Positions 3,561 to 58,961 of a DNA stretch of 64,000 nt are shown here, in pieces. Both the position numbers and the translations under genes were made by a program. The stretch spans positions 3,983 through 67,982 of the forward strand of contig CALXWC010000004.1 of the NCBI GenBank assembly GCA_944392265.1, given 5' to 3'. Under the pieces are notes generated by a model. The model did no database searches. It was not told the origin of the DNA and saw only the letters and a program-made list of their open reading frames with translations. The stretch is from an uncultured Alphaproteobacteria bacterium. GTDB lineage: Bacteria; Pseudomonadota; Alphaproteobacteria; RF32; CAG-239. Each line of letters starts with the position of its first letter. Within the stretch, counting starts at the first letter, position 1.

Positions 3561-4919
3561 TTAATCAAAAATATTCTCTAACTTTTTGATTCCGGCTGAA
3601 AAGACGTAAAAGACCAAAATATCTCCGTTTTGAATTTCTTCAAGCTCAGACGGAAAGATAATTTCATCTTCTCTTGATATTGCGCAAACCTTACTGCTTG
3701 CCGGTAAATCTAGACTCTTAATTGTTTTGCCAACCAAGCGAGAACCTTCTGCAACGGGAACCTCCCAAATTTCGGCAAAACCTCTACCCAAAGAAAATGC
3801 TTTTTTAACTTCAGGACAACGCAATTCACACAATATTTTTGAGATGGTTACAGATGTGCGGTCCACTAAAATGTTTTCATCAACAATATCCACTAAGTTA
3901 TTGTAAAATGGAGAGTTAACCAAAGAAATATTGTTTTTAACGCCACATTTTTTAGACAACATGGATGATAAAATATTATCTTCATCTTTCAAGGTGACGG
4001 CAACAGAGACATCTGCATTATAAATACCAGCCTCACTTAAAATTTTGTCACTCATCATTTGTCCTTGCAAAACTACCGTATTGTCTAAAGATTTGGCAAT
4101 TTGCATGGCTTTTTCATAATCTTCTTCAATGATTTTGCAGCTAATGATGTTGTCATCTTGTTCACAAAGCCCTGCAATGCATTTAGAAACTTCATTGCCG
4201 CCAAAGACAACGACTCTCTCTATGGCTGAATTTTCTGCTCCGAAAGCAGACATTGTTGCATTAATTTTTTCGGCAGGAATTAAAGCATAAATTTCATCTT
4301 TTGCCTCAATTACATCATTTTTATACGGAATAAAAATATTGTTTTTACGGTTTATGCAAACAATTTCCACTTCCAAACTTTCATCAACCTGTGTGAGATT
4401 TAGGAGCGGAACTTTTACAAACGGGCTCTTTTCCGGAATTTTGAACGCAACCAAATATAATCTGTTGTTTAATAACGTTCTTACCTCAGAACTGCCCGGA
4501 ATTTTTAACATACTATATATATATTTGCCGATTTCTTCTTCCGGAGATATAATTAAATCAACCGGAATATGCTCATCTTTATATAAATTAGCCCACAACG
4601 GATTTAAAAACTCAGAAGAATTTAATCTGGCAATTTTTCTTGGAACTTCAAACAAGCTATGCGCCACGTTACATGCTGTTAAGTTTACTTCATCATTATC
4701 TGTTGCCGCAATTAAGAGCTGAGTTTTCTTGGCATCGGCTTTTTCTAAAACGCTTGGGTGCGATGCAGAGCCTAAAATCGGCAAAACTTCAAATTCTTGT
4801 GCTAAATCTTCCAATCTTTTCGGATTATTGTCTATAACAACAATATCATTATTACCTTTAACAAGGTAGCTTACAATACTTCTGCCTACGGCACCTGCCC
4901 CACAAACGATAATCTTCAT
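3561..4919 (-). CDS. trkA: Trk potassium uptake system NAD-binding subunit TrkA
   Basis: 452 aa. N-terminal Rossmann motif MKIIVCGAGAVGRS. Duplicated RCK architecture and a length typical of TrkA. Confidence 0.85.
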   Translation of the reverse strand: MKIIVCGAGAVGRSIVSYLVKGNNDIVVIDNNPKRLEDLAQEFEVLPILGSASHPSVLEKADAKKTQLLIAATDNDEVNLTACNVAHSLFEVPRKIARLNSSEFLNPLWANLYKDEHIPVDLIISPEEEIGKYIYSMLKIPGSSEVRTLLNNRLYLVAFKIPEKSPFVKVPLLNLTQVDESLEVEIVCINRKNNIFIPYKNDVIEAKDEIYALIPAEKINATMSAFGAENSAIERVVVFGGNEVSKCIAGLCEQDDNIISCKIIEEDYEKAMQIAKSLDNTVVLQGQMMSDKILSEAGIYNADVSVAVTLKDEDNILSSMLSKKCGVKNNISLVNSPFYNNLVDIVDENILVDRTSVTISKILCELRCPEVKKAFSLGRGFAEIWEVPVAEGSRLVGKTIKSLDLPASSKVCAISREDEIIFPSELEEIQNGDILVFYVFSAGIKKLENIFD

Positions 4920-4922
4920 TAT

Positions 4923-5891
4923 TTATCCTTCTTCAGACAAACTGTCAAAATAACGATTTATTTCAGCCAAAGCATCCGGAAAATTATTTATTCTTACATA
5001 ATTTTCTCTGAACTTTCTGGCATCTCGGCAATTTTTGCAATACCAACAAACATATTTTCTGGAAATGCCTATTGCCAATCTTTCTCCATAATATTCCACC
5101 AAAGCTTTAATATGTGTTAATAAAGCCTCTTTTACAGTGTTTTTTAATATGGGTTCAGGCTCTGCCCCGTTTTCCAAATAATTATGAATTTGAGATATTA
5201 TCCACGGAGCACCTAGTGCAGCCCTTCCAACCATAACGGCATCTACCCCTGTTTCATCAATCATCTTTTTTGCGTCATAAGCATTACATATATCACCATT
5301 TCCTATAACGGGAATTTTAACAGCTGATTTAACATCGGCAATTGTCTTCCAATCAGCAACACCTGAATAAAAATCGCTTCTGGTTCTGCCATGAATTGTA
5401 ATGTAAGAGGCTCCGGCTTGTTCACACATTTTGGCAAAGTCAACGGCATTTTCCGTATTATGATCCCAACCTTTTCTAAACTTAACGCTCACCGGTAATT
5501 TGCTGGAATTAACCGCTGTTTTAATAATTTGCTCGGCTCTTTTCATATCTTTCATTAAATATGAACCCGAATTGTTGTTTACAATCTTTTTAACAGGACA
5601 CCCCATATTAATATCTATTGAGCAAGCGCCTAATTCTTCTACAAAAGGACAAACTTCGGCAAACAGTTCAGGCTCGCCTCCAACCAATTGCACAACAACG
5701 GGATAAGCTTCATCCTTAACATCCGCAATTTTATAACTTTTGGGATTTTTTCTTTGAATGGCATTAATTGCCACCATTTCTGAAACCATTTGTCCCTGAC
5801 CAAAACTTTTTACCAATTGTCTCATTGGTTTATCCGTTATTCCGGCCATGGGCGCTAAAAAAACTTTACTGTCAAAATTTAATATTTTCAT
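4923..5891 (-). CDS. dusB: tRNA-dihydrouridine synthase (DusB/NifR3 type)
   Basis: 322 aa. FLAPMAGITDKPMR and NMGCPVKKI catalytic Cys motif. TIM-barrel Dus family. Confidence 0.85.
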   Translation of the reverse strand: MKILNFDSKVFLAPMAGITDKPMRQLVKSFGQGQMVSEMVAINAIQRKNPKSYKIADVKDEAYPVVVQLVGGEPELFAEVCPFVEELGACSIDINMGCPVKKIVNNNSGSYLMKDMKRAEQIIKTAVNSSKLPVSVKFRKGWDHNTENAVDFAKMCEQAGASYITIHGRTRSDFYSGVADWKTIADVKSAVKIPVIGNGDICNAYDAKKMIDETGVDAVMVGRAALGAPWIISQIHNYLENGAEPEPILKNTVKEALLTHIKALVEYYGERLAIGISRKYVCWYCKNCRDARKFRENYVRINNFPDALAEINRYFDSLSEEG

Positions 5892-6316
5892 TATACCTTA
5901 TAATCAAAACTTTGGTTATTTTTATACATAAATTCGATGGTTGTTTGGGGTTCTTTATTCATTTGGGCGGCGAACTTATATAAGTTTGAAACATATTCGC
6001 TCAAATATAATGTATCACTTGAACTTATCTGTCCAACATTTTGTATTTTGTCAATATTTTCGATATTTATTCCATTTTTAGGAAAAATTATGTCATTTTC
6101 CTTTAAATGATGAATATCTGCTATAACTTGTGGCGATAACTTATTGATGCCATATGAAAATTTTGTCCAATTAGTCTCTTTTTGCCACTCTTGCCTTTCT
6201 GCAAAATCGACACCCTCTTTCAAAGCGCGTTTTTCTTTTATCGCCTTAACAGAATCTTCTATCTGTATGTTCAGATAAGAATATATGCTTTGTTGTTGTG
6301 CCGATATTGCAGACAT
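5891..6316 (-). CDS. hypothetical protein
   Basis: 141-aa ORF. Its stop overlaps the dusB start by 1 nt. No recognisable motif. Confidence 0.45.
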   Translation of the reverse strand: MSAISAQQQSIYSYLNIQIEDSVKAIKEKRALKEGVDFAERQEWQKETNWTKFSYGINKLSPQVIADIHHLKENDIIFPKNGINIENIDKIQNVGQISSSDTLYLSEYVSNLYKFAAQMNKEPQTTIEFMYKNNQSFDYKV

Positions 6317-49542: not shown

Positions 49543-50673
49543 TTATTTGTCTGAAATATGTACTATCAGTGGAATAATCATCTCTTTTTTAGTCAAACCG
49601 GCATGGTGCGCCTTAAACTCAATAGAATCAACTCCTCCTTCTGTTTGATACTGCAAAATTCTGTCCTCAGTAGCCAAAGCCATATAATCTCCCAAAAACT
49701 CTCTGAATTTGGGATGCATCATTCCCTCCCCGGCATAACCTTGTTTGATGTATTCTTCAGATGTGAGCAAGATAAAATCTTTACCGAATCTTTTTTGAAA
49801 CTCTTTTTCAAAAACTTGCTTTTTGTCTTCTTTTATATAAAAAGCCACAGCTCTTGGTTCAATGGCCGGAGGTAAGCGCAAACAATCATTAATCTCTTTA
49901 ATCTTTTCTAACCTGACATCTTCTGAAACATCAATCAAACCATGGTCTGCAGTCACAATCAGCAAGGCATTTTTTAATTGTTTGGTTAGTTCTTCTACAT
50001 GCCTATCCAAGGATTTTATTTTGGTTTTAGTCTTATCGCTATAACATCCCGTATGATGCATTACGGAATCTGGTTCTTTATAATATGCCAGTATAAACTT
50101 TTTTTCTTTTTCTTTTGCAAGCTCGGCAATCTTATTGCAGATTTCGTTCATCTTATCTACTTTGTATCCGCCAAAAAAGCGCGCTACACCATATGCTTTG
50201 TATTTGCCCTGCTCATTTATTTGTTCAAAAAGCTTTTTATGAGGCAAAAACTCTTGTCCGACATTGAGTTTTAGGTTTTTGCCGCTATAAAAATCTCGAT
50301 TCAAAAAAAGCTCAATATTCGTATCATATTCTTTAAAATAACATTGCCACCCTGCCCAACCATGTTCTTGCGGCGTTAATCCGGTGTAAATGCTGGTGGT
50401 GGCGGCCGTTGTTGTCGGCGGAAAGACAGAGGAAATTTTTTCAACCATATGCTTTCTTAAAAAGCTTTTTTCTGAAAGATTATGCTCAAGCATATCTACG
50501 CCCATGCCGTCTAATACCAAAAGGACAACCGTTTGATAATCTTGTTGCAAAAAGCTGTCTAACGCACTCAAACTTGAATGGTGTGTCGGGCATTCAAAAT
50601 ATTGCAGAATTGAGTTTGATAAATTAACCAAACTGTTTTTATAATCAGGCTTGCAAACTTTGTTCATATTCAC
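49543..50673 (-). CDS. alkaline-phosphatase-superfamily protein (nucleotide pyrophosphatase/phosphodiesterase-like)
   Basis: 376 aa. Metal-site motifs VVLLVLDGMG, PPTTTAATTS and LLIVTADHG. Confidence 0.6.
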   Translation of the reverse strand: MNMNKVCKPDYKNSLVNLSNSILQYFECPTHHSSLSALDSFLQQDYQTVVLLVLDGMGVDMLEHNLSEKSFLRKHMVEKISSVFPPTTTAATTSIYTGLTPQEHGWAGWQCYFKEYDTNIELFLNRDFYSGKNLKLNVGQEFLPHKKLFEQINEQGKYKAYGVARFFGGYKVDKMNEICNKIAELAKEKEKKFILAYYKEPDSVMHHTGCYSDKTKTKIKSLDRHVEELTKQLKNALLIVTADHGLIDVSEDVRLEKIKEINDCLRLPPAIEPRAVAFYIKEDKKQVFEKEFQKRFGKDFILLTSEEYIKQGYAGEGMMHPKFREFLGDYMALATEDRILQYQTEGGVDSIEFKAHHAGLTKKEMIIPLIVHISDK

Positions 50674-51220
50674 TTCTCAATTTTGAAAATGTGTTTATAT
50701 CCTTATATCTTTGCTCTGCTTGGCTCCACAAAGCTTGTCTTTGTATGCCTTCCAAGACGTAACCTAATTTTTGTGCCACATTGGCAGATTTTTTATTTAA
50801 GACATCTGTATGTATAACAATGCGATTAAAACCTAAGCCAAAGAACTCTTTTTCTATGAGTTTTACTGCTTCTTGCATATATCCGTTGCCAGCATATGAA
50901 CTTGAAATCCAATAACCGATTTCCAAGCATTTATCTTTTTCTTTAACGTTAAGTGCAGAAATCATACCCATAAACTTTTTATTTTGATTCAAAATTAAAT
51001 AATTAAAACCGATGCCTTTTTTCCACTCTTCTTCGCAGCCTAACAAATATTCATAACTATCTTCAGCACGATGAGTTTTTGTTGCCCAACTTAGCCACGG
51101 AGATAATTCAGGCAGACTTTTTTTCATTTCTTCATCATGCTTGCGCGCTTGCTCAATGCTTTTTATGGCTCTTTGCAGAATAATTCTGCTTCCTTTTATT
51201 GTTTCTTGCGGAAGTATCAT
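50645..51220 (-). CDS. GNAT N-acetyltransferase (RimJ/RimL-like)
   Basis: 191 aa. EIGYWISSSYAGNGYMQEAV acetyl-CoA-binding core. Confidence 0.65.
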   Translation of the reverse strand: MILPQETIKGSRIILQRAIKSIEQARKHDEEMKKSLPELSPWLSWATKTHRAEDSYEYLLGCEEEWKKGIGFNYLILNQNKKFMGMISALNVKEKDKCLEIGYWISSSYAGNGYMQEAVKLIEKEFFGLGFNRIVIHTDVLNKKSANVAQKLGYVLEGIQRQALWSQAEQRYKDINTFSKLRSEYEQSLQA

Positions 51221-51300
51221 TTTTTTCTCCTAACTACGCAATCTAGAGTAGATTTTTTATTTTTATATGGCAATATATTTTTATATTTCGGAGAAAAATC

Positions 51301-51846
51301 ATGCTAAAACTTGTATTACCAAACCCAAAATATTTAGATTCCGTTAAAAATGCCATTGCGGAATATAAGGCTCAACCATCTTTATTTGATATTCATTGCA
51401 TAACAAAAATGATTGAGGCTGAAAAAGATGATTTTAAAAATTATTTTCATGAAGTTGAAAATAAAAGACAAGGTATTGATTTGCCTGAAGGACATGTTCC
51501 TAACACAACTCTTTGGTTAATTGATGATGAACAATATATCGGCTCTTTTGATATTCGTCATGAGCTTAATGATTATCTTTTGTTAAACGGTGGGCATATA
51601 GCTTATCAGATTATTCCGTCTGCTCGTCGTAAAGGCTATGTTAAAGCAGGATTAAAATTAACACTGGCTTTTGCTCAAGAAAATTTGCATATAAACAAAG
51701 CCTTACTTACTTGTCATTTTGAAAATGAGGCTTCTTATCGAGCTATGATATCTGTGATGCAAGAATGGGGCGGAGAAGAAATATCTCCTTCTTTGATTGA
51801 TAATCATCAAGAACATCGGGTGTGGATTAATACGCAACCAAAATAA
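51301..51846 (+). CDS. GNAT-family acetyltransferase
   Basis: 181 aa. IGSFDIRHELNDYLL..GGHIAYQIIPSARRKGY core. Confidence 0.6.
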   Translation: MLKLVLPNPKYLDSVKNAIAEYKAQPSLFDIHCITKMIEAEKDDFKNYFHEVENKRQGIDLPEGHVPNTTLWLIDDEQYIGSFDIRHELNDYLLLNGGHIAYQIIPSARRKGYVKAGLKLTLAFAQENLHINKALLTCHFENEASYRAMISVMQEWGGEEISPSLIDNHQEHRVWINTQPK

Positions 51847-51895
51847 AAAAAGCTTGCTTTTATTTTTGAAGCGTTCTATATAATATTTCGTTATT

Positions 51896-51954
51896 CAGGA
51901 CATAGTTCAGCCTGACGGAAACGTCCGCGGCGCGTAGAGCGCTTGCATGGGGTG
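51896..51954 (+). pseudogene. tRNA-Pro 5'-half fragment with a ~20-nt GC-rich insertion in the D-loop
   Basis: caggacatagttcagcctg[acggaaacgtccgcggcgcg]tagagcgcttgcatggggtg matches the intact tRNA-Pro through the anticodon loop. Similarity then stops. Confidence 0.5.
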
Positions 51955-51979
51955 ACTATTTTAACGAATAATAAAAATA

Positions 51980-52056
51980 CGGGACGTAGTTCAGCCTGGT
52001 AGAGCGCTTGCATGGGGTGCAAGAAGTCGGAGGTTCGAATCCTCTCGTCCCGACCA
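51980..52056 (+). tRNA. tRNA-Pro (anticodon GGG), CCA encoded
   Basis: Acceptor cgggacg/cgtcccg. D-arm gttc..gagc. Anticodon arm cttgc-atGGGgt-gcaag. T-arm ggagg-ttcgaat-cctct. Ends ACCA. Confidence 0.9.
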
Positions 52057-52108
52057 GATATAAAAAAACCTGCTGAAAAGCAGGTTTTTTTATATCTGCT
52101 TGGCGGGC
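52051..52108 (+). repeat. 58-nt direct repeat, copy 1 (tRNA 3' tip, terminator, and ttggcgggc)
   Basis: cgaccagatataaaaaaacctgctgaaaagcaggtttttttatatctgcttggcgggc. Copy 2 differs at 3 positions. Confidence 0.85.
52062..52092. terminator. rho-independent terminator after tRNA-Pro (bidirectional appearance)
   Basis: Stem acctgct/agcaggt with loop gaaa, flanked by A and T runs. Confidence 0.7.
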
Positions 52109-52130
52109 GCAGGATTTGAAACTCCGAAAA

Positions 52131-52243
52131 GGAGGTTCGACTACCAGCAATAGGCGAGACGCTGGTATCGCCGGTTTTGTCTTAGGCAAAAATTGCGCCT
52201 GTGCGGCGGAGTGAAACGACGCCAATCCTCTTCAATCCGACCA
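52131..52243 (+). pseudogene. tRNA 3'-part fragment whose T-loop is split by an ~83-nt GC-rich insert
   Basis: ggaggttcga (52131-52140) and aatcctct (52224-52231) together recreate the exact T-arm of tRNA-Pro. They are followed by tcaatccg-a-cca. The insert at 52141-52223 contains stems taccagc/gctggta and cgccg/cggcg. Confidence 0.35.
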
Positions 52244-52295
52244 GATATAAAAAAACCTGCTAAAAAGCAGGTTTTTTTGTATCTGTTTGGCGGGC
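52238..52295 (+). repeat. 58-nt direct repeat, copy 2
   Basis: cgaccagatataaaaaaacctgctaaaaagcaggtttttttgtatctgtttggcgggc. Contains a second terminator hairpin at 52249-52279. Confidence 0.85.
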
Positions 52296-52374
52296 CAAAT
52301 TAGCTGTTGTCATAGACCTTTTTTTATGCTATATTCTGAGCATCATAAAAAATTATTAATTAAAAAAAATAAGT

Positions 52375-52752
52375 ATGGAAAAGAAAAAAATTATTCTCAA
52401 TGTGCTCATTATCATTATGAGCCTTGTGAGTGCGGTATTAACAATTAAATTTGCACTCGGGATTGTAAATCAGATGATATCTTCTGGTTTAGGTATTATC
52501 CAAAATCCAATGTCATTGTTACTATGTCTTCTTGTTGGAGGTGCGGTTACGCTTTTTTTATTAGCAATAATAAAAAAAGTATTTGTAAGGATAGCAGCAT
52601 ACTATATAGGAATACTGCTCAGTGGAGCATGTTTCTATTATGCATATGGAGCGTTTACCCTCAATATTGGGATAGAATATACGCTGACATATGCTATGCT
52701 TGGTGCTATATTATTTGCAACGACTGTCATCATTGCAAAAGTATTTAAATAA
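52375..52752 (+). CDS. small polytopic membrane protein
   Basis: 125 aa with about 4 hydrophobic helices. No SD. Confidence 0.5.
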   Translation: MEKKKIILNVLIIIMSLVSAVLTIKFALGIVNQMISSGLGIIQNPMSLLLCLLVGGAVTLFLLAIIKKVFVRIAAYYIGILLSGACFYYAYGAFTLNIGIEYTLTYAMLGAILFATTVIIAKVFK

Positions 52753-52799
52753 ATAAAAAGAGACACTATTAATACGGTGTCTCTTTTTATTTATTTAGA

Positions 52800-53069
52800 T
52801 TATTGTACCAATAATACAATAAATTGTCTATCTGAAAGGGTATCAGGCTCATAAATATACCCTCTTCTACCATCTTTCAAAATTCCCCATCTTCCGGGAA
52901 TGGCAGTGCAGATTTCTAAAACAACTTGTCCATCAAGTTTCCATTGCGCTACGACCATTTTTCTGCCGTTGATGGTTGAACTTGACTTTGAAAAGCCAAA
53001 GCGCTTCCCGGTTGTTTTAACCTTAAAGGTCTTACTTTCAGTTAATCTTTCTAAAAAAATTCTTTCCAT
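52800..53069 (-). CDS. hypothetical protein
   Basis: ORF to 53075 (TTG). The first ATG is at 53069 (MERIFLERL...). No recognised motif. Confidence 0.35.
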   Translation of the reverse strand: MERIFLERLTESKTFKVKTTGKRFGFSKSSSTINGRKMVVAQWKLDGQVVLEICTAIPGRWGILKDGRRGYIYEPDTLSDRQFIVLLVQ

Positions 53070-53125
53070 AAACAAAAAAATTAACGGGTTATAATAATCA
53101 ATTAACGCAGCTTTAAGTTAGCATA

Positions 53126-53184
53126 ATTTTTTAGATATTCAACACTCAAGTTACAAAAAAAGGTTCGGTCAAAAAACCGAACCT
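53126..53184. repeat. terminator module, copy 1
   Basis: attttttagatattcaacactcaagttacaaaaaaaggttcggtcaaaaaaccgaacct is nearly identical to 53934-53992. It includes the terminator stem aggttcggt/accgaacct. Confidence 0.8.
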
Positions 53185-53198
53185 ATAAATTTTTTGTT

Positions 53199-53735
53199 TT
53201 AATCTTCTCGGCCAAGAGCCAGATAGCCCAAGCCAAAGAAGAAATACAGAACTGACAAAATTGCCAAGATTTGCATTACCGGAGCCAAAGCGGCTAGAAC
53301 CGGGAAAATTACAGATAGCCACCCGCAACATGCCAAGCCGAGTATGGCTATCATTGCTTTTGCGGCATGAGGCTTCTTTTCATCTTGGATTATGAAGAAA
53401 AAGAAAGCACTCCATAGGAATTCTCCTACGGCAACGAATGTCGGTAGATCATTTCCTTTTAATGCCGCAACTCCAGTTGCTATGGTAATAAAAATACCTG
53501 ACATACCGCCTAGAGAAAAAATACTCTCGAAGATATCTTTAACTTTCTTTGGCTTACAATATACTTTTTTTGCAAACCAGAAGACGGCCAATGTGACAAC
53601 TGTGGAAAGAGCGTGTTTCCAGTATGCCATATTGGCATAATTTTCATACCACCCCCAAGAAATCAAGGCGAGGTTCAAAACAATTACTGAAAAGAAAGCC
53701 ACTCTGTAGCTTCTGTTTAATTTTTTAGTTTCCAT
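53199..53735 (-). CDS. 4-TM membrane protein, cassette variant A
   Basis: 178 aa. Same topology and a shared central motif (GEFLWSAFFFFIIQDEKKP versus GELLTATLCWLVSEKEKTP) with the 188-aa neighbour. Otherwise diverged. Confidence 0.6.
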   Translation of the reverse strand: METKKLNRSYRVAFFSVIVLNLALISWGWYENYANMAYWKHALSTVVTLAVFWFAKKVYCKPKKVKDIFESIFSLGGMSGIFITIATGVAALKGNDLPTFVAVGEFLWSAFFFFIIQDEKKPHAAKAMIAILGLACCGWLSVIFPVLAALAPVMQILAILSVLYFFFGLGYLALGRED

Positions 53736-53758
53736 AATTTTTTTTGTTTTTTAATGAT

Positions 53759-53924
53759 TAATTTAACAATAATTTTTTGGTAAGCTTATACATATCACTT
53801 TTTGTCTAATACGTCAACAATAAAAATCACAATTCTTTACTTTTTAATGATTTAAATAAATTTATGTCTTTTATTTTGCTTTTTTCTATCTCGTTTTCAA
53901 TCTGCATTTGAGCTCTGAGAAAGG
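53759..53924. repeat. promoter/leader module plus peptidase 3'-end relic, copy 1
   Basis: About 166 nt that align along their whole length with 54581-54750, with scattered substitutions. Confidence 0.8.
53828..53924 (-). pseudogene. relic of the 3' end of the S41 peptidase gene
   Basis: Minus-strand translation SFLRAQMQIENEIEKSKIKDINLFKSLKSKEL* compares with the genuine C-terminus AFLKAQMQIEKEMEKSKIKDINLFKSLKNKEL*. No upstream coding continuation. Confidence 0.6.
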
Positions 53925-53933
53925 AATTGATAT

Positions 53934-53992
53934 ATTTTTTAGATATTCAATGCACAAGTTACAAAAAAAAGGTTCGGTAAAAAACCGAACCT
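53934..53992. repeat. terminator module, copy 2
   Basis: See copy 1. Terminator stem at 53970-53992, preceded by a plus-strand A-run. Confidence 0.8.
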
Positions 53993-54007
53993 TTGATGTT
54001 TTATTTT

Positions 54008-54574
54008 TTATCGGAAAAGTTTTCTTCGGCATTTCCATAAGGAATGCACAATAACAGGAAGAAAACTTCCGGCAGCGACAGAAAAAGCGCTGCGAACCTC
54101 AGGAAAGGCAACATACAACCATAGCAGTAAAAGTACCATGTTCAACAATATGCCTACCCATACGGGAGGTGTTTTTTCTTTTTCAGACACCAACCAACAA
54201 AGTGTCGCTGTCAATAGTTCTCCTGCTGCCCAGAATTCCATTGTTTCCGTTGTTAAGAATTTGTCTTCATCATTTATAAATGATAATAACAAAACCACAA
54301 TAAAAACAAATATTGCCGAAATAGCAGCATATACACATGAATTATGTGCAATTTCTTTTACATTGTCACCATATTTTCCAAGCAAAATACCGAAAGCTAT
54401 GATGGCTACGGCAACAACAGCCAGAACAATGCGTTGCCATACCGTTGGAGAAGAAAAAAATTCATCCCCTAGCATGACCAAATTTAATGTAGCGACTAAA
54501 GTCAGCATTAAAATTCGAACAATGTAATTTTTCTCAATAGAAATTTTAATAGTCTTTTCCATTTCCATTTTCAT
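54008..54574 (-). CDS. 4-TM membrane protein, cassette variant B
   Basis: 188-aa ORF with four hydrophobic helices. SD-less A-rich leader. Confidence 0.6.
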   Translation of the reverse strand: MKMEMEKTIKISIEKNYIVRILMLTLVATLNLVMLGDEFFSSPTVWQRIVLAVVAVAIIAFGILLGKYGDNVKEIAHNSCVYAAISAIFVFIVVLLLSFINDEDKFLTTETMEFWAAGELLTATLCWLVSEKEKTPPVWVGILLNMVLLLLWLYVAFPEVRSAFSVAAGSFLPVIVHSLWKCRRKLFR

Positions 54575-54580
54575 TTTTTT

Positions 54581-54750
54581 TAATTTAACAATAATTTTTT
54601 GGTAAGTTTATACATATCACTTTTTGTCTAATGCGTCAACAATAAAAAAAATTACAATTCTTTATTTTTTAATGATTTAAATAGATTTATGTCTTTTATT
54701 TTGCTTTTTTCCATCTCTTTTTCAATCTGCATTTGAGCTTTGAGAAAGGC
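54581..54750. repeat. promoter/leader module plus genuine peptidase 3' end, copy 2
   Basis: See copy 1. On the minus sense it contains TTGACG, a 17-nt spacer, and an extended -10 TGATATGTA. Confidence 0.8.
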
Positions 54751-55740
54751 ATTGGATGAAGCATCGCTAATATCTGCCGGTATTCCTTCTTTTTCTTGTA
54801 ACGGCATGCCGTTTTTGTTTCTGGCGCAATAATATGTTCCAATCTTTAACACGCCACTCTCAAATGGTAGTCTGATGGGAGCAGAACCGGCAAAACAACC
54901 TGATGTTTGTTCTCCGATACTCAAACTATGAGGAAGTTGAGAAAGCAACCACACCGCTCCTTCAGAGGCCGAAGCACACCATGCATCTTGCAACACATAA
55001 ATTCCGCCACTGAAATTATCTTTAGGGTTTGCTTTATAATGCACATCATCAGGACCAATGACTTGCTTTTTCTTATCTAAAATATCTGCTTGTTTTTGAT
55101 TAATCGGTTGAATATCTATTGGCTCATACACATCTGCGTATGATAATTCTTTTCCTCCTATTCGTTCTCCTATTTCTTTGATAACATCGGCATCTCCGCC
55201 TTGATTGCCTCTAAAGTCAAAAATAATATTTTGCCAGTTTTGCCTTTCTTTCTCGGTAAAAAAAGCTTCAACAAACTTTTGTCTGTTTTCTTTTTGCAAA
55301 TGTGTATTGCCGCCAAAAGAAGGCACGGCTACAATTCCTGTGCTTTTTCCTTTAATATTCTTACTTGCAATCATCCATTGCGCAAGACCATTTTGTATTT
55401 TGAAATGTCTTACATCTGTAATATGTAATTCTGACAATTCTTCTGTTGACTTATATGCTAGATTATATGCCTTAGAAGAATATTGAGGCTCTTCTTTTGC
55501 CACTAACTGCCTTCCCTTTTCATCATATAGTTCAATATGATTATCCGGAACTTGTTGTGCAATCAACCTACCTAAGGCTTCCATTTGCTTTTGTTGTGGC
55601 ATATCTCTATTTATTTTGGCAGCGCTTGCTAAAAATCTTCTTTTCTGCAAAGCAATTTTTTTATCATCTTTAGCTTTTTGATGATTCCATTCCGGCAAAT
55701 TATTGGCTATAAATTCGGCATATTGTGAAATATGGTCCAT
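54652..55740 (-). CDS. S41-family (C-terminal processing/tail-specific type) serine peptidase
   Basis: 362 aa. IIFDFRGNQGGD and WCASASEGAV resemble the S41 DxRxNxGG and SASE motifs. No obvious signal peptide. Confidence 0.6.
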   Translation of the reverse strand: MDHISQYAEFIANNLPEWNHQKAKDDKKIALQKRRFLASAAKINRDMPQQKQMEALGRLIAQQVPDNHIELYDEKGRQLVAKEEPQYSSKAYNLAYKSTEELSELHITDVRHFKIQNGLAQWMIASKNIKGKSTGIVAVPSFGGNTHLQKENRQKFVEAFFTEKERQNWQNIIFDFRGNQGGDADVIKEIGERIGGKELSYADVYEPIDIQPINQKQADILDKKKQVIGPDDVHYKANPKDNFSGGIYVLQDAWCASASEGAVWLLSQLPHSLSIGEQTSGCFAGSAPIRLPFESGVLKIGTYYCARNKNGMPLQEKEGIPADISDASSNAFLKAQMQIEKEMEKSKIKDINLFKSLKNKEL

Positions 55741-55843
55741 ATCATTTTCCTTTTTTTTGATATTATAGCTAAATTTTGTGTTCCGTCAAAAAAATCTTGC
55801 CAAAGCAAAAGTTTGCGTTTAACTTGCCGATAAGGAGAACATT

Positions 55844-56152
55844 ATGAAAAGATTTAATCGCCAAATTGAAGATTTTACTTGTGAACATTGTGGTACAAAA
55901 GTTCATGGCAACGGTTATACAAACCACTGCCCTAATTGTTTATGGAGCAAACATGTGGACATCAACCCAGGTGACCGCGCTGCTGATTGCGGTGGACTGA
56001 TGGAACCGATTGCCGTTGAAATGAAAAACGGCGAATACATCCTCACGCAAAAATGTACAAAATGTGGACATATACGCCGTAACAAGGTTTGTGATGAAGA
56101 TAACTTTGATGCTGTTATTGCTCTTTCAAAATCTATGATAAATAAAATTTAG
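55844..56152 (+). CDS. RNHCP-domain zinc-ribbon protein
   Basis: 102 aa. CEHCG...YTNHCPNCLWSKHVD...CGG...KCTKCGH. Confidence 0.6.
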   Translation: MKRFNRQIEDFTCEHCGTKVHGNGYTNHCPNCLWSKHVDINPGDRAADCGGLMEPIAVEMKNGEYILTQKCTKCGHIRRNKVCDEDNFDAVIALSKSMINKI

Positions 56153-56157
56153 CCTTA

Positions 56158-56988
56158 TTATTGCAACTTGTCCTTGATATACTTTAATACAATTTCTTTG
56201 CTTTCTTTGGCTTGATTTATATCCGTTATGTATTCATCCACCCAATTAAAGATGTTATCTAACAGGTTATGTCTTAAAATAAACCGATATGAAGATTTAT
56301 AATATATTTCAAAAACAAAAGCTAACAACTGCAATAATCGATCTGAAAAAGACTTGCATATTTGAAAATTTATAAGGTGATGTGCACAAAACTCTTGCCA
56401 TACAGCAGCGGAAACCGGAGCGTATTGTTCATCCTTACTCAAGTGAGCAAAGAACAAATCCTTAAAAACTCGGTTGTCATATTTTATCAAATACAGATTA
56501 GCAATTTTGTCCGCATCTTTAACCAGCTCGTAAAGCTTTTGGGTTTCTGTTTTTTCCATTCCTTCCGGCATATGTTGATATTCTTCATCTTTATCCAGAG
56601 CATCTGCTAACTCTCCATGCCTTTTTATGGGTAAAAGCAAGCGCAAATCTGAATAGCCTAAGTTTTTCAAAATCTCATAACTAAAATGACCATGATTATA
56701 ATGTTTGCTTGCATCTTGAGATAAAAGATATATTTCTTGAAATCTGCCAATATCATGAAAAAGACAAACAAGCTTGCCTAATTTTAACACTTCTTCTGAT
56801 TGGTTTTTAAAATAAGCTTCATTTTTCAAAAGATAGTTACCTGCTCCAACAACCTGCATCGAATGTTTTATTTTTTCTTTGGCAAAACTTTCAAAAAAAG
56901 CCTTACCTTTTACCTTATCCAAGCAATCATAAAAAGCACTATATAATTGATTTTGCTCTATTTTTACATCTATTTTTCTTAATTTCAT
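56158..56988 (-). CDS. HD-domain phosphohydrolase-family protein
   Basis: 276 aa. H...LFHDIGRF...DADKI metal-ligand pattern. Confidence 0.6.
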   Translation of the reverse strand: MKLRKIDVKIEQNQLYSAFYDCLDKVKGKAFFESFAKEKIKHSMQVVGAGNYLLKNEAYFKNQSEEVLKLGKLVCLFHDIGRFQEIYLLSQDASKHYNHGHFSYEILKNLGYSDLRLLLPIKRHGELADALDKDEEYQHMPEGMEKTETQKLYELVKDADKIANLYLIKYDNRVFKDLFFAHLSKDEQYAPVSAAVWQEFCAHHLINFQICKSFSDRLLQLLAFVFEIYYKSSYRFILRHNLLDNIFNWVDEYITDINQAKESKEIVLKYIKDKLQ

Positions 56989-56990
56989 TA

Positions 56991-57016
56991 TAAAAAAAGC
57001 CGCAATTTCTTGCGGC
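56991..57016 (-). terminator. rho-independent terminator after clpX
   Basis: Stem gccgcaa/ttgcggc. The minus sense is followed by a T-run (plus-strand A-run 56992-56998). Confidence 0.65.
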
Positions 57017-57030
57017 TCTCCGTTTATTTT

Positions 57031-58317
57031 TTATGCTGACTTTTTATTTTCAGAAGACTTTTTATTTTCCTTACGATAAATCAGCTTCGGTGCTTTTTTG
57101 TCATTGATAACTTTTTCATCAATCACAATTTCTGCAACGTCTTTTTTATCCGGAATATCATACATTAATTCAAGTAAGTTTTCTTCCATAATAGCTCTTA
57201 AGCCACGAGCGCCGGTTTTGCGTTCAATTGCTTTTTTGGCAATGGCAATCAATGCTTCATCGGTGAAAGTTAACTTAACATCTTCCATCTCAAACAAGCT
57301 GGCATATTGACGAACCAATGCGTTTTTAGGTTCAGTTAAAACTTTAACCAATGCTGCTTCATCTAAATCTTCCAATGTGGCAATGACCGGCAAACGACCA
57401 ACAAATTCTGGAATCAAACCATATTTTAACAAATCTTCTGGTTCTACTTCTTTCAAAATATCGCCAATGCGTCTTTCATCCGGACCTCTGACCTCAGCAC
57501 CGAAACCGATAGAAGATTCTTTACCTCTGCTGCCAACAATTTTTTCCAAGCCGGAAAATGCACCGCCGCAAATAAACAAGATGTTGGTTGTATCAACGTG
57601 CAAAAATTCTTGTTGCGGATGTTTGCGTCCACCTTGAGGCGGAACATTGGCAACCGTACCTTCAATGATTTTTAACAAAGCTTGTTGCACGCCTTCACCG
57701 GACACATCTCTTGTAATTGACGGACCGTCTGTTTTTCTAGTAATTTTATCAATTTCATCAATATAAACGATACCGCGTTGAGCTTTTTCAATATCATAGT
57801 TAGCGGCTTGAACCAGCTTTAAGATAATGTTTTCAACGTCTTCACCAACGTATCCGGCCTCTGTTAAAGTTGTTGCATCTGCAATGGCAAAAGGGACATC
57901 CAAAATTTTTGCCAAAGTTTGCGCCAACAATGTTTTACCGGAACCTGTTGAACCAATCAAAATGACGTTTGATTTTGAAATATCAACTTCTTTATCTTTA
58001 GTCTTATTATCTAAATTATTTAATCTTTTATAGTGGTTATATACGGCAACAGACAAAACCTTTTTGGCTCTTTCTTGCCCGATAACATATTGATCCAAAA
58101 ACTCTTTAATTTTGGAAGGAGTTGGCAAGTTTTCAGAATCAATACCACCTTCTCTTTTGGCTTCTTCAGCCATTTCATCTGCAACAATATTGATGCAAAC
58201 TTCAATACATTCATCACAGATATATACGCCTCTGCCGGCAACCAGTTTTTTTACTTCTGACTGACTTTTTCCGCAGAAAGAACAGTGCAATTCGTTGTTA
58301 TCTTTGTTATCACTCAT
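57031..58317 (-). CDS. clpX: ATP-dependent protease ATPase subunit ClpX
   Basis: 428 aa. N-terminal zinc finger CSFCGK...CDEC. Walker [15 protein letters not shown]-loop region. Confidence 0.95.
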
Positions 58318-58328
58318 ATCTCTTACCC

Positions 58329-58961
58329 TTATTTGCCGGCAATTTCAGTACGATTGGTCACGATTTGATCAATCAGGCCAAATTTTAATGCTTCTTCAGG
58401 TGTCATAAAATTATCTCTTTCCATTGCTTTTTCAACAACAGATAATTTTTGTCCTGTATGGATAGAATATAATTTATTCATTCTTTTTTTCAACTCAACC
58501 AAATTTCTGGCATGGATTTCAATATCGGTCACCTGACCTTTGAAACCGGAACTTGGTTGGTGAATCATTATCATTGAATTTGGCAAAGAAAATCTTTTTC
58601 CCTTAGTTCCGGCTGCCAAAAGGAAAGAACCCATTGAGCAAGCTTGACCGATGCATACCGTGTTTACATCACAAGTAATGTATTGCATGGTGTCATACAT
58701 AGCCATGCCGGATGTAACGGAACCGCCCGGAGAGTTGATATACATATAAATATCTTTTTTAGGATTTTCTGATTCCAAAAATAACAATTGAGCGCAAACC
58801 AATGCAGACATCTCATCATTAACCTCACCGGTTAAAAAGATTATTCTTTCTTTTAACAATCTGGAAAAGATATCAAAAGAACGTTCGCCTTTTGAGGTTT
58901 GCTCAATTACCATAGGAATCAAGCTATCATTAATCCGCTCTAAAGAATTTTGCATAATCAT
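58329..58961 (-). CDS. clpP: ATP-dependent Clp protease proteolytic subunit
   Basis: Catalytic [11 protein letters not shown] (Ser) and IMIHQPS (His). ATG 58961 is preceded by AAGGAA. The ORF track extends to TTG 58988. Confidence 0.95.

Follow-up and report, generated by a model that had tools for sequence, protein, structure and literature searches.

Divergent membrane-protein cassettes, probably stacked by recombination, in a hypervariable slot beside an S41-family gene of an uncultured gut alphaproteobacterium

Deeply divergent alleles that are swapped by homologous recombination via conserved flanks, and that are older than the backbone around them, are known from the pneumococcal capsule loci and the staphylococcal agr specificity groups. 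[quoted passage not shown] Arrays of T6SS immunity genes are also outlined for gut Bacteroidales, as acquired interbacterial defence (AID) clusters (bioRxiv 10.1101/471110). Here, a locus of an uncultured Alphaproteobacteria bacterium is compared with these systems. In this locus, a unit carrying the gene for a small membrane protein occurs twice in tandem next to a gene of the S41 peptidase family. The DNA analyzed, referred to below as the window, is the whole 64,000-nt stretch from positions 3,983 to 67,982 of contig CALXWC010000004.1 (assembly GCA_944392265.1), which belongs to a 1.45-Mb metagenome-assembled genome (MAG) that is 81.75% complete. The two units are probably self-contained cassettes of divergent alleles that were stacked by recombination in a hypervariable slot, with a stub of the S41 gene copied along.

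As in the orphan arrays of V. cholerae, divergent small genes are stacked in a conserved slot of the window, the proposed recombination pairs a homologous end with an illegitimate one, the displaced cassette is preceded by a 3'-end stub of the upstream gene, and the number and type of genes vary between strains. Stacked divergent genes, conserved junctions and an upstream-gene stub, which together make up the layout of an orphan-immunity array, were all found, whereas a delivered toxin with a polymorphic C-terminal domain was not, and no toxin-like open reading frame (ORF) lies in the slot, although other organisms may encode a cognate toxin. Different from V. cholerae, the window also has no effector, its upstream gene encodes a predicted cytoplasmic S41-fold protein with a conserved C-terminus, and its cassettes match no known immunity family and each have their own promoter and terminator. 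The AID clusters, as far as that source outlines them, are likewise arrays of small, horizontally exchanged protective genes of gut bacteria for which the matching toxin is absent; here, however, no more than two genes occur together, the window's slot has no recombinase, a T6SS link is lacking and the family is confined to one alphaproteobacterial genus. As at the capsule and agr loci, conserved flanks enclose divergent alternative alleles whose age exceeds that of the sequence around them, but here two alleles are kept in tandem and the genes are single small ORFans. Stacking by displacement is already known; the setting is new, with a very narrow, undescribed protein family and without a toxin.

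The features of the duplicated unit are as follows.
54652..55740, minus strand: S41-family gene, 362 amino acid residues (Pfam PF03572, AlphaFold2 (AF2) and Foldseek)
54652..54750, minus strand: resident S41 3' end (E1), the last 33 codons, duplicated segment with 92-94% identity to the relic
54575..54651, minus strand: promoter/leader module P1 (pattern match at 54618-54639; kept before cassettes elsewhere)
54008..54574, minus strand: memB, B-type, 188 residues, or 184 if the third ATG is the start (ORF list)
53934..54007, minus strand: terminator flank T1, an 11-bp hairpin at 53968-53994 with a T-run, then ~35 nt of shared downstream sequence
53926..53933, minus strand: duplication junction of 8 nt, where homology of the downstream flank stops and the S41 relic starts (alignments)
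53827..53925, minus strand: S41 3'-end relic (E2), 32 codons and TGA without the upstream gene body
53736..53826, minus strand: promoter/leader module P2 (pattern match at 53796-53817; 97% identical to P1 over 69 nt)
53199..53735, minus strand: memA, A-type, 178 residues (ORF list)
53126..53198, minus strand: terminator flank T2 with a hairpin at 53161-53184 (repeat finder)
53165..53985, minus strand: extra second-unit stretch of ~820 nt that is missing in the related locus L039 (pairwise alignment, 60-nt bins)

The repeat finder detected three pairs of direct repeats in this minus-strand region, 53815-53929/54640-54754 (92%), 53758-53826/54580-54648 (97%) and 53126-53204/53934-54012 (80%). 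Their start-to-start spacing was 808-825 nt, i.e., a unit of ~810-825 nt is present twice, and a MAFFT alignment of both units gave the same layout. This confirmed the tandem ~810-nt unit with a relic of the S41 3' end that a sequence-only reading of the window had proposed. In minus-strand order, each unit contains the last 33 S41 codons, the promoter/leader, a membrane-protein gene and the terminator. The ungapped positions identical between the copies were 91 of 97 for the S41 3' end, 72 of 76 for the promoter/leader and 64 of 72 for the terminator flank, or 227 of 245 (93%) for all flanks pooled. The coding cores of memA and memB, in contrast, shared 50% nucleotide identity, compared with 48 +/- 1% for shuffled cores (Fisher p = 1.2e-22 for flanks versus cores). 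The conserved flanks and diverged cores noted in the same reading are thus statistically distinct. The relic translates as SFLRAQMQIENEIEKSKIKDINLFKSLKSKEL followed by a stop, and 7 of its 99 sites do not match the resident S41 end.

The identity between the MemA and MemB proteins was 24% over 113 residues (BLASTP, E 0.002). A family profile retrieved the A, B and C types, the last of which was found in relatives, at E values from 1e-21 to 1e-72 (2e-60 for MemA). MemA, MemB and type C are old, highly divergent lineages, at least three in number, of one family. A profile search of 1.84 billion representative proteins found only four clusters, with nothing beyond the cassette family itself; MemB had six relatives with identities of 70-79%, and MemA had a single relative among 5.8 billion proteins (P0002, 52%). 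To judge from these searches, the family is confined to one genus and previously undescribed, and its three deep lineages belong to a gut lineage that has never been cultured. The proteins had been read as four-transmembrane proteins. Instead, the AF2 model of MemB had six helices (predicted local distance difference test score, pLDDT, 56.6), a hydropathy scan agreed, and the cassette proteins are predicted to possess 5-6 hydrophobic helices, probably with both termini in the cytoplasm. Among the polar residues conserved in them are N31, E119 and an E-K-x-P loop. As the AF2 model was poor and a Foldseek search with it gave no match below E 0.5, no fold was assigned to MemB. Scans of MemA, MemB, type C and two further ORFs of the slot, of 91 and 125 residues, against Pfam, NCBIfam, PADLOC and PHROGs found nothing above chance. 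With PADLOC-DB 2.0, the slot proteins gave only chance-level matches (E 0.07-0.1) and the S41 protein none; the strongest match was that of a bordering HD protein to the Cas3-HD model (E 2e-5), which reflects the shared HD domain.

The cores and the flanks of the cassettes differ in age. In the close relative L039, one B cassette is the only one present, and precisely the ~820 nt at 53165-53985 are missing. Between the window and L039, the S41 gene was 97% identical at the nucleotide level, with most 60-nt bins at 95-100% and single lower bins at 83% and 93%. For the region of the 91-residue ORF, most bins were at 97-100% and the last one at 92%. The leader and memB, however, were only 62-97% identical. 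The synonymous divergence (dS) was 0.33 for memB but 0.09 for S41 and 0.07 for the 91-residue ORF, so the memB core is older than its flanks. The ratios of nonsynonymous to synonymous divergence (dN/dS) were 0.26-0.45 when B-type genes were compared in pairs, and 0.14 between the two A-type genes, for which dS was saturated at 2.5. Thus, memA and memB are both maintained by purifying selection, and these ratios indicate no gene-wide positive selection on the cassette genes. The relic and the resident S41 end share two derived sites (QM, versus EK in L039, L041 and L044), and private changes number three or four per copy, three in the relic if the junction base is set aside. Thus, the relic is a young copy made within the window lineage. 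Moreover, a pair of proteins with 24% identity cannot arise while a functionless stub stays 93% identical, so the cores must have been different alleles before they were joined. The locus is a clean, datable case of allele stacking in which the non-coding stub of a neighboring gene serves as a clock, and by this clock the cassette cores are far older than the joining event.

In the proposed mechanism, a cassette would consist of a strong extended -10 promoter of the sigma-70 type with its leader, one gene for an inner-membrane protein of ~180-190 residues, and an intrinsic terminator. Recombination would have stacked an A-type cassette behind the B-type cassette in the window strain, in an event with one homologous end, in S41 or in the terminator flank, and one illegitimate end, at which sequence ~45 nt past the terminator was joined to S41 codon ~330. 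The copied segment would have run from S41 codon ~330 to ~45 nt beyond the terminator, and its start at that codon would account for the stub ahead of memA. Homology-facilitated illegitimate recombination and unequal crossing-over with DNA of a sister strain bearing the other allele are both candidate routes. The flanks would be alike because they are young copies, with the leader possibly homogenized by gene conversion and the promoter and terminator under constraint; the cores would be unlike because they were different alleles before stacking. We infer this route, as well as the expression of both genes from their own promoters. Several points weigh against this account. As to direction, A may have been placed behind B, or B ahead of A. 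The A+B stack comes from a single strain, as all three assemblies are 100% identical, and shared and private sites in the 99-nt relic are few. In addition, S41 adjoins B in two divergent S41 lineages (the window type and that of L045), so an old functional link to S41 is possible.

The locus was compared with those of relatives, all of which are uncultured Alphaproteobacteria from animal guts. The slot is bordered by a conserved clpP-clpX-HD-RNHCP block on one side, and by a tRNA cluster followed by rpiB-glyA on the other. Each of the 13 genomes of the genus carried the RNHCP gene, and the cargo beside it differed. The remaining features of the window's slot are as follows.
55844..56152, plus strand: RNHCP-domain gene that forms the conserved near border (Pfam PF12647, E 1e-31)
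52800..53075, minus strand: ORF of 89-91 residues that belongs to the slot backbone (95% nucleotide identity to L039; also in G004, L041 and L044)
52375..52752, plus strand: membrane ORFan of 125 residues with fast, patchy divergence
51980..52056, plus strand: tRNA-Pro(GGG) at the far slot border (ARAGORN, Rfam)

The cargo of the slot in the relatives is as follows.
G002, G007, G012: S41 alone, followed in G012 by serine recombinases
L039, L040, L041, L044: S41, B, an 89-residue ORF and a 124-125-residue ORF (L044 is cut at the contig end)
L045: S41 with a divergent C-terminal tail, B and a reverse-strand ORF, cut at the contig end
L034-37, L052-53: B and C without S41, with the promoter module repeated
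L042, L043: B adjoining RNHCP, no S41; the contig ends just past B
L038: A-type gene (52% amino acid identity to memA) after the S41 3' end and the same promoter module, beside an IS200-type transposase
G003, G008: soluble ORF of 223 residues
G005, G006: other small membrane ORFans
G009: nothing

The locus is therefore a hypervariable accessory-gene slot, occupied by up to two cassettes, by deletion relics or by unrelated cargo, or empty of cassettes altogether. In line with the cassette polymorphism that had been anticipated, the relatives had between none and two cassettes, drawn from types A, B and C, as well as deletion relics, and not one invariant gene.

Deletion relics were found in three genomes. 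In G004 (L032, contig C8, 5684-6146), a deletion of ~1.3 kb has joined S41 codons ~15-27 in frame with MemB residues 71-188 at a 9-nt microhomology (AAAGAAATT / AAAAAAATT). In G001 (L033, contig C2, 5250-5438), a 62-residue ORF (P0011) joins the first ~53 B-type residues to the last nine C-type residues (SIVNLYRQK), and this fusion is best read as a deletion across a former B+C tandem. In G010 (L017, contig C11, 4316-4594), S41 is cut to 92 residues by an in-frame internal deletion from residue ~55 to the C-terminal helix. These relics show that illegitimate recombination is ongoing in the slot. In L034, which has B and C without S41, ~13 nt before the B promoter (GAAAGAAATATGA, ~5890-5915) resemble the last S41 codons and stop of the L045 type; they may, weakly, be a minimal relic of a deleted S41 gene.

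The 125-residue ORFan had been noted as a third small four-transmembrane gene nearby; it is unrelated to the cassette family (hhalign probability 1%). Its identity to L039 ranged from 77 to 97% per 60-nt bin, and its dS was 0.33 versus 0.07 for the adjoining 91-residue ORF. This mosaic divergence suggests recombination. Another ORFan lies between RNHCP and S41, with 258 residues in G004 (L032 4943-5719) and 365 residues in G002 (L054 3810-4907); it adds to the variable cargo of the slot, and the 258-residue form, the only one scanned, had no family match. At the tRNA border, a 59-nt direct repeat with a hairpin (52050-52108 and 52237-52295, 95%) flanks the region just past tRNA-Pro, which fits repeated integration or recombination there.

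Such a slot could also hold decaying leftovers of mobile elements next to tRNA genes, with the cassettes as junk or as cargo once carried by phages or islands, e.g., holins or superinfection-exclusion proteins, that has no present role. The slot does adjoin tRNA genes with tRNA-fragment repeats, serine recombinases are present in the G012 slot, an IS200-type transposase lies beside the A-type gene of L038, deletion relics are many, and the cargo is different in every species. However, the intact copies are under purifying selection, no PHROGs or PADLOC match was found, the promoter and terminator are kept across species, and the window's slot contains no integrase or phage gene. This explanation is thus unlikely. 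The cassettes also differ from integron cassettes, which are promoterless and lie between attC sites beside an intI integrase: each has its own promoter and intrinsic terminator, and no integrase ORF was found in 50000-58500.

The sequence-only reading had regarded the membrane proteins as immunity or self-protection cassettes tied to a secreted or processing S41 enzyme, so that their variation would track the enzyme or its substrate. The neighboring protein does belong to PF03572, given its domain score (53.7 bits, cut-off 24) and fold. Its AF2 model had a pLDDT of 91.3, and its best Foldseek matches were S41 folds without a PDZ domain (4l8k, IRBP, 8vcb, CPAF and 4y68), with E values of 3e-12 to 1e-9 and template modeling scores (TM-scores) of 0.46-0.59 when normalized by the query and 0.55-0.68 when normalized by the target. 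H68 and S257 were invariant in 30 homologs, and S257 is the nucleophile Ser of the (G/A)SASE motif, within A256-S257-A258...E260. No PDZ domain was matched, and the protein does not classify as a C-terminal processing peptidase (Ctp/Prc/Tsp, S41A), as it scored 29 bits against the TIGR00225 cut-off of 218. The residue 25 positions past S257 is C282, in a variable column with T as consensus. This column is presumably the place of the canonical catalytic Lys of Ctp/Prc enzymes, which in CtpB and Prc lies 25 residues past the Ser (TFGKG). The subfamily may have a Ser-His arrangement or be inactive. Thus, the 362-residue protein shares its fold and the invariant Ser of ASASE with PDZ-less S41 proteins, such as the putative peptidase 4l8k of Parabacteroides, the S41 protease 8vcb of B. 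fragilis, the nisin-resistance lipoprotein 4y68 and the IRBP modules; different from them, it has no signal peptide or lipobox and has Cys or Thr at the presumed Lys position.

The link between this protein and the cassettes is positional. A cassette directly follows S41 in the window, in L039-41, L044, L045 and probably in L038, no terminator lies between the S41 stop and the cassette promoter, and the layout recalls toxin-immunity arrays (PMC5361080). On the other hand, the S41 protein has no hydrophobic segment, signal peptide or lipobox (maximum 17-residue Kyte-Doolittle score of 0.85), so it is most likely cytoplasmic; the hydropathy scan did not find the secretion signal that such an enzyme would need. 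Its last 33 codons are near-identical across the window, L039, L041 and L044, and strains with different cassettes share a conserved S41 C-terminus, not a polymorphic one. The S41 subfamily comprised 30 clusters, all from uncultured gut Alphaproteobacteria. S41 occurred without any cassette in G002, G007, G012 and ~19 loci of other genera, and in none of the other genera surveyed was a small membrane gene found downstream of it. Cassettes, each with its own promoter, occurred without S41 in L034-37, L042-43 and L050-53. Since S41 can be found where cassettes are absent, and cassettes where S41 is, a dedicated partnership is unlikely, and S41 is a neighbor whose gene end was co-duplicated. Of the immunity-type reading, the cassette polymorphism and the array-like layout stood, while the toxin was lacking and S41 is not secreted; an immunity system tied to S41 is accordingly quite improbable.

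A single gene duplicated in tandem within the locus, with cores that then changed rapidly under diversifying selection between conserved flanks, would account for the tandem geometry and the 93%-identical flanks, and the MemA and MemB proteins are indeed distant homologs. However, core identity is at the shuffle level beside a non-functional relic that is 93% identical, dN/dS stays at 0.14-0.45 with the A-type synonymous sites saturated, A and B occur separately in other lineages, and L039 has B alone. Moreover, memB has diverged 3.5 times as much at synonymous sites as the S41 gene next to it, which argues for old alleles and recombination rather than diversification in place. This explanation, which had also been raised from the sequence, is close to refuted. 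Finally, although the genome is a MAG and allelic variation at the locus is present in the population, the tandem is not an assembly artifact in which two strain alleles were wrongly joined, since the flank copies differ by 18 substitutions and several indels and the second copy begins mid-S41 at a unique junction that is 100% identical in a 42-kb scaffold of the European Nucleotide Archive (L079) and a 4.6-kb single-run Logan contig (L078).

The role of the cassettes can be approached only tentatively. Given the deep alleles in one slot, the stacking of different alleles, their frequent loss and their autonomous strong promoters, a possible guess is that they encode strain-variable protective membrane proteins, i.e., immunity or exclusion factors, and that two cassettes widen the protection. 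Against this guess, no toxin, phage gene or match to a defense family was found nearby, and the gene-wide dN/dS is below 1. A fuller version, which is more doubtful, holds that uncultured gut Alphaproteobacteria have, in A, B and C, a new family of polymorphic immunity or exclusion proteins of the inner membrane, in which ancient alleles under frequency-dependent selection, with a shared envelope-gene promoter/leader, are stacked to widen the protection against membrane-targeting toxins or phages of gut neighbors. If true, this would be an orphan-immunity array without a linked toxin in a lineage where none is known. Should the proteins prove protective, the slot would serve compactly to mark conflict between strains of animal gut Alphaproteobacteria; otherwise, it would be an ordinary variable accessory locus.

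The flanking modules themselves also recur. P1 contains a -35 element TTGACG, a conserved 17-nt spacer, an extended -10 element TGaTATGTA and a leader motif ATTATTGTTAAA, and no match to this pattern was expected by chance. The -35 element, the 17-nt spacer and the extended -10 element (TTGACG...GACAAAAAGTGnTAT) were found upstream of every A, B and C gene seen, across species and assemblies. The ~22-nt leader segment after the -10 element is identical in both window copies and nearer to the A-type leader of L038 than to the B-type leaders of L039-L045. The resemblance of both window leaders to the L038 leader suggests later gene conversion between the tandem copies. For the terminators, T2 from the hairpin onward is identical to the flank after the single B cassette in L039, L040 and L044, and one base off in L041. 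A dispersed repeat or miniature inverted-repeat transposable element (MITE) was rejected as the origin of the terminator, as the hairpin was found only at the two cassettes in this genome. An Rfam scan found tRNA only, and its sub-threshold small RNA matches fell on the terminator hairpins. A candidate S41 promoter by consensus match is as follows.
55762..55789, minus strand: TTGACG-16-TATAAT, 11 of 12 matches

A purely recent origin of the flank conservation was rejected in part, as the promoter module is kept across species and cassette types and the leader motif recurs at other genes. The likeness of the flanks thus appears to be part youth and part functional constraint on promoter and terminator. 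On another contig, a 223-residue single-pass membrane protein has a near copy of the promoter module ahead of it, and two further small envelope ORFans are preceded by the leader motif ATTATTGTTAAATTAAAAAAA. In G000, the same architecture, i.e., TTGAC-N17-extended -10 with ATTATTGTTAAATTAAAAAAA ~20 nt on, was found at C3:69695-69770, C9:55839, C14:15737 and C20:27672-27725, as well as in the window at 54575-54651 and 53736-53826; it heads small membrane or secreted ORFans of 223, 196, 91 and 121 residues. This recurrence suggests a small regulon or else a portable module for expression, with one promoter/leader common to several small envelope genes.

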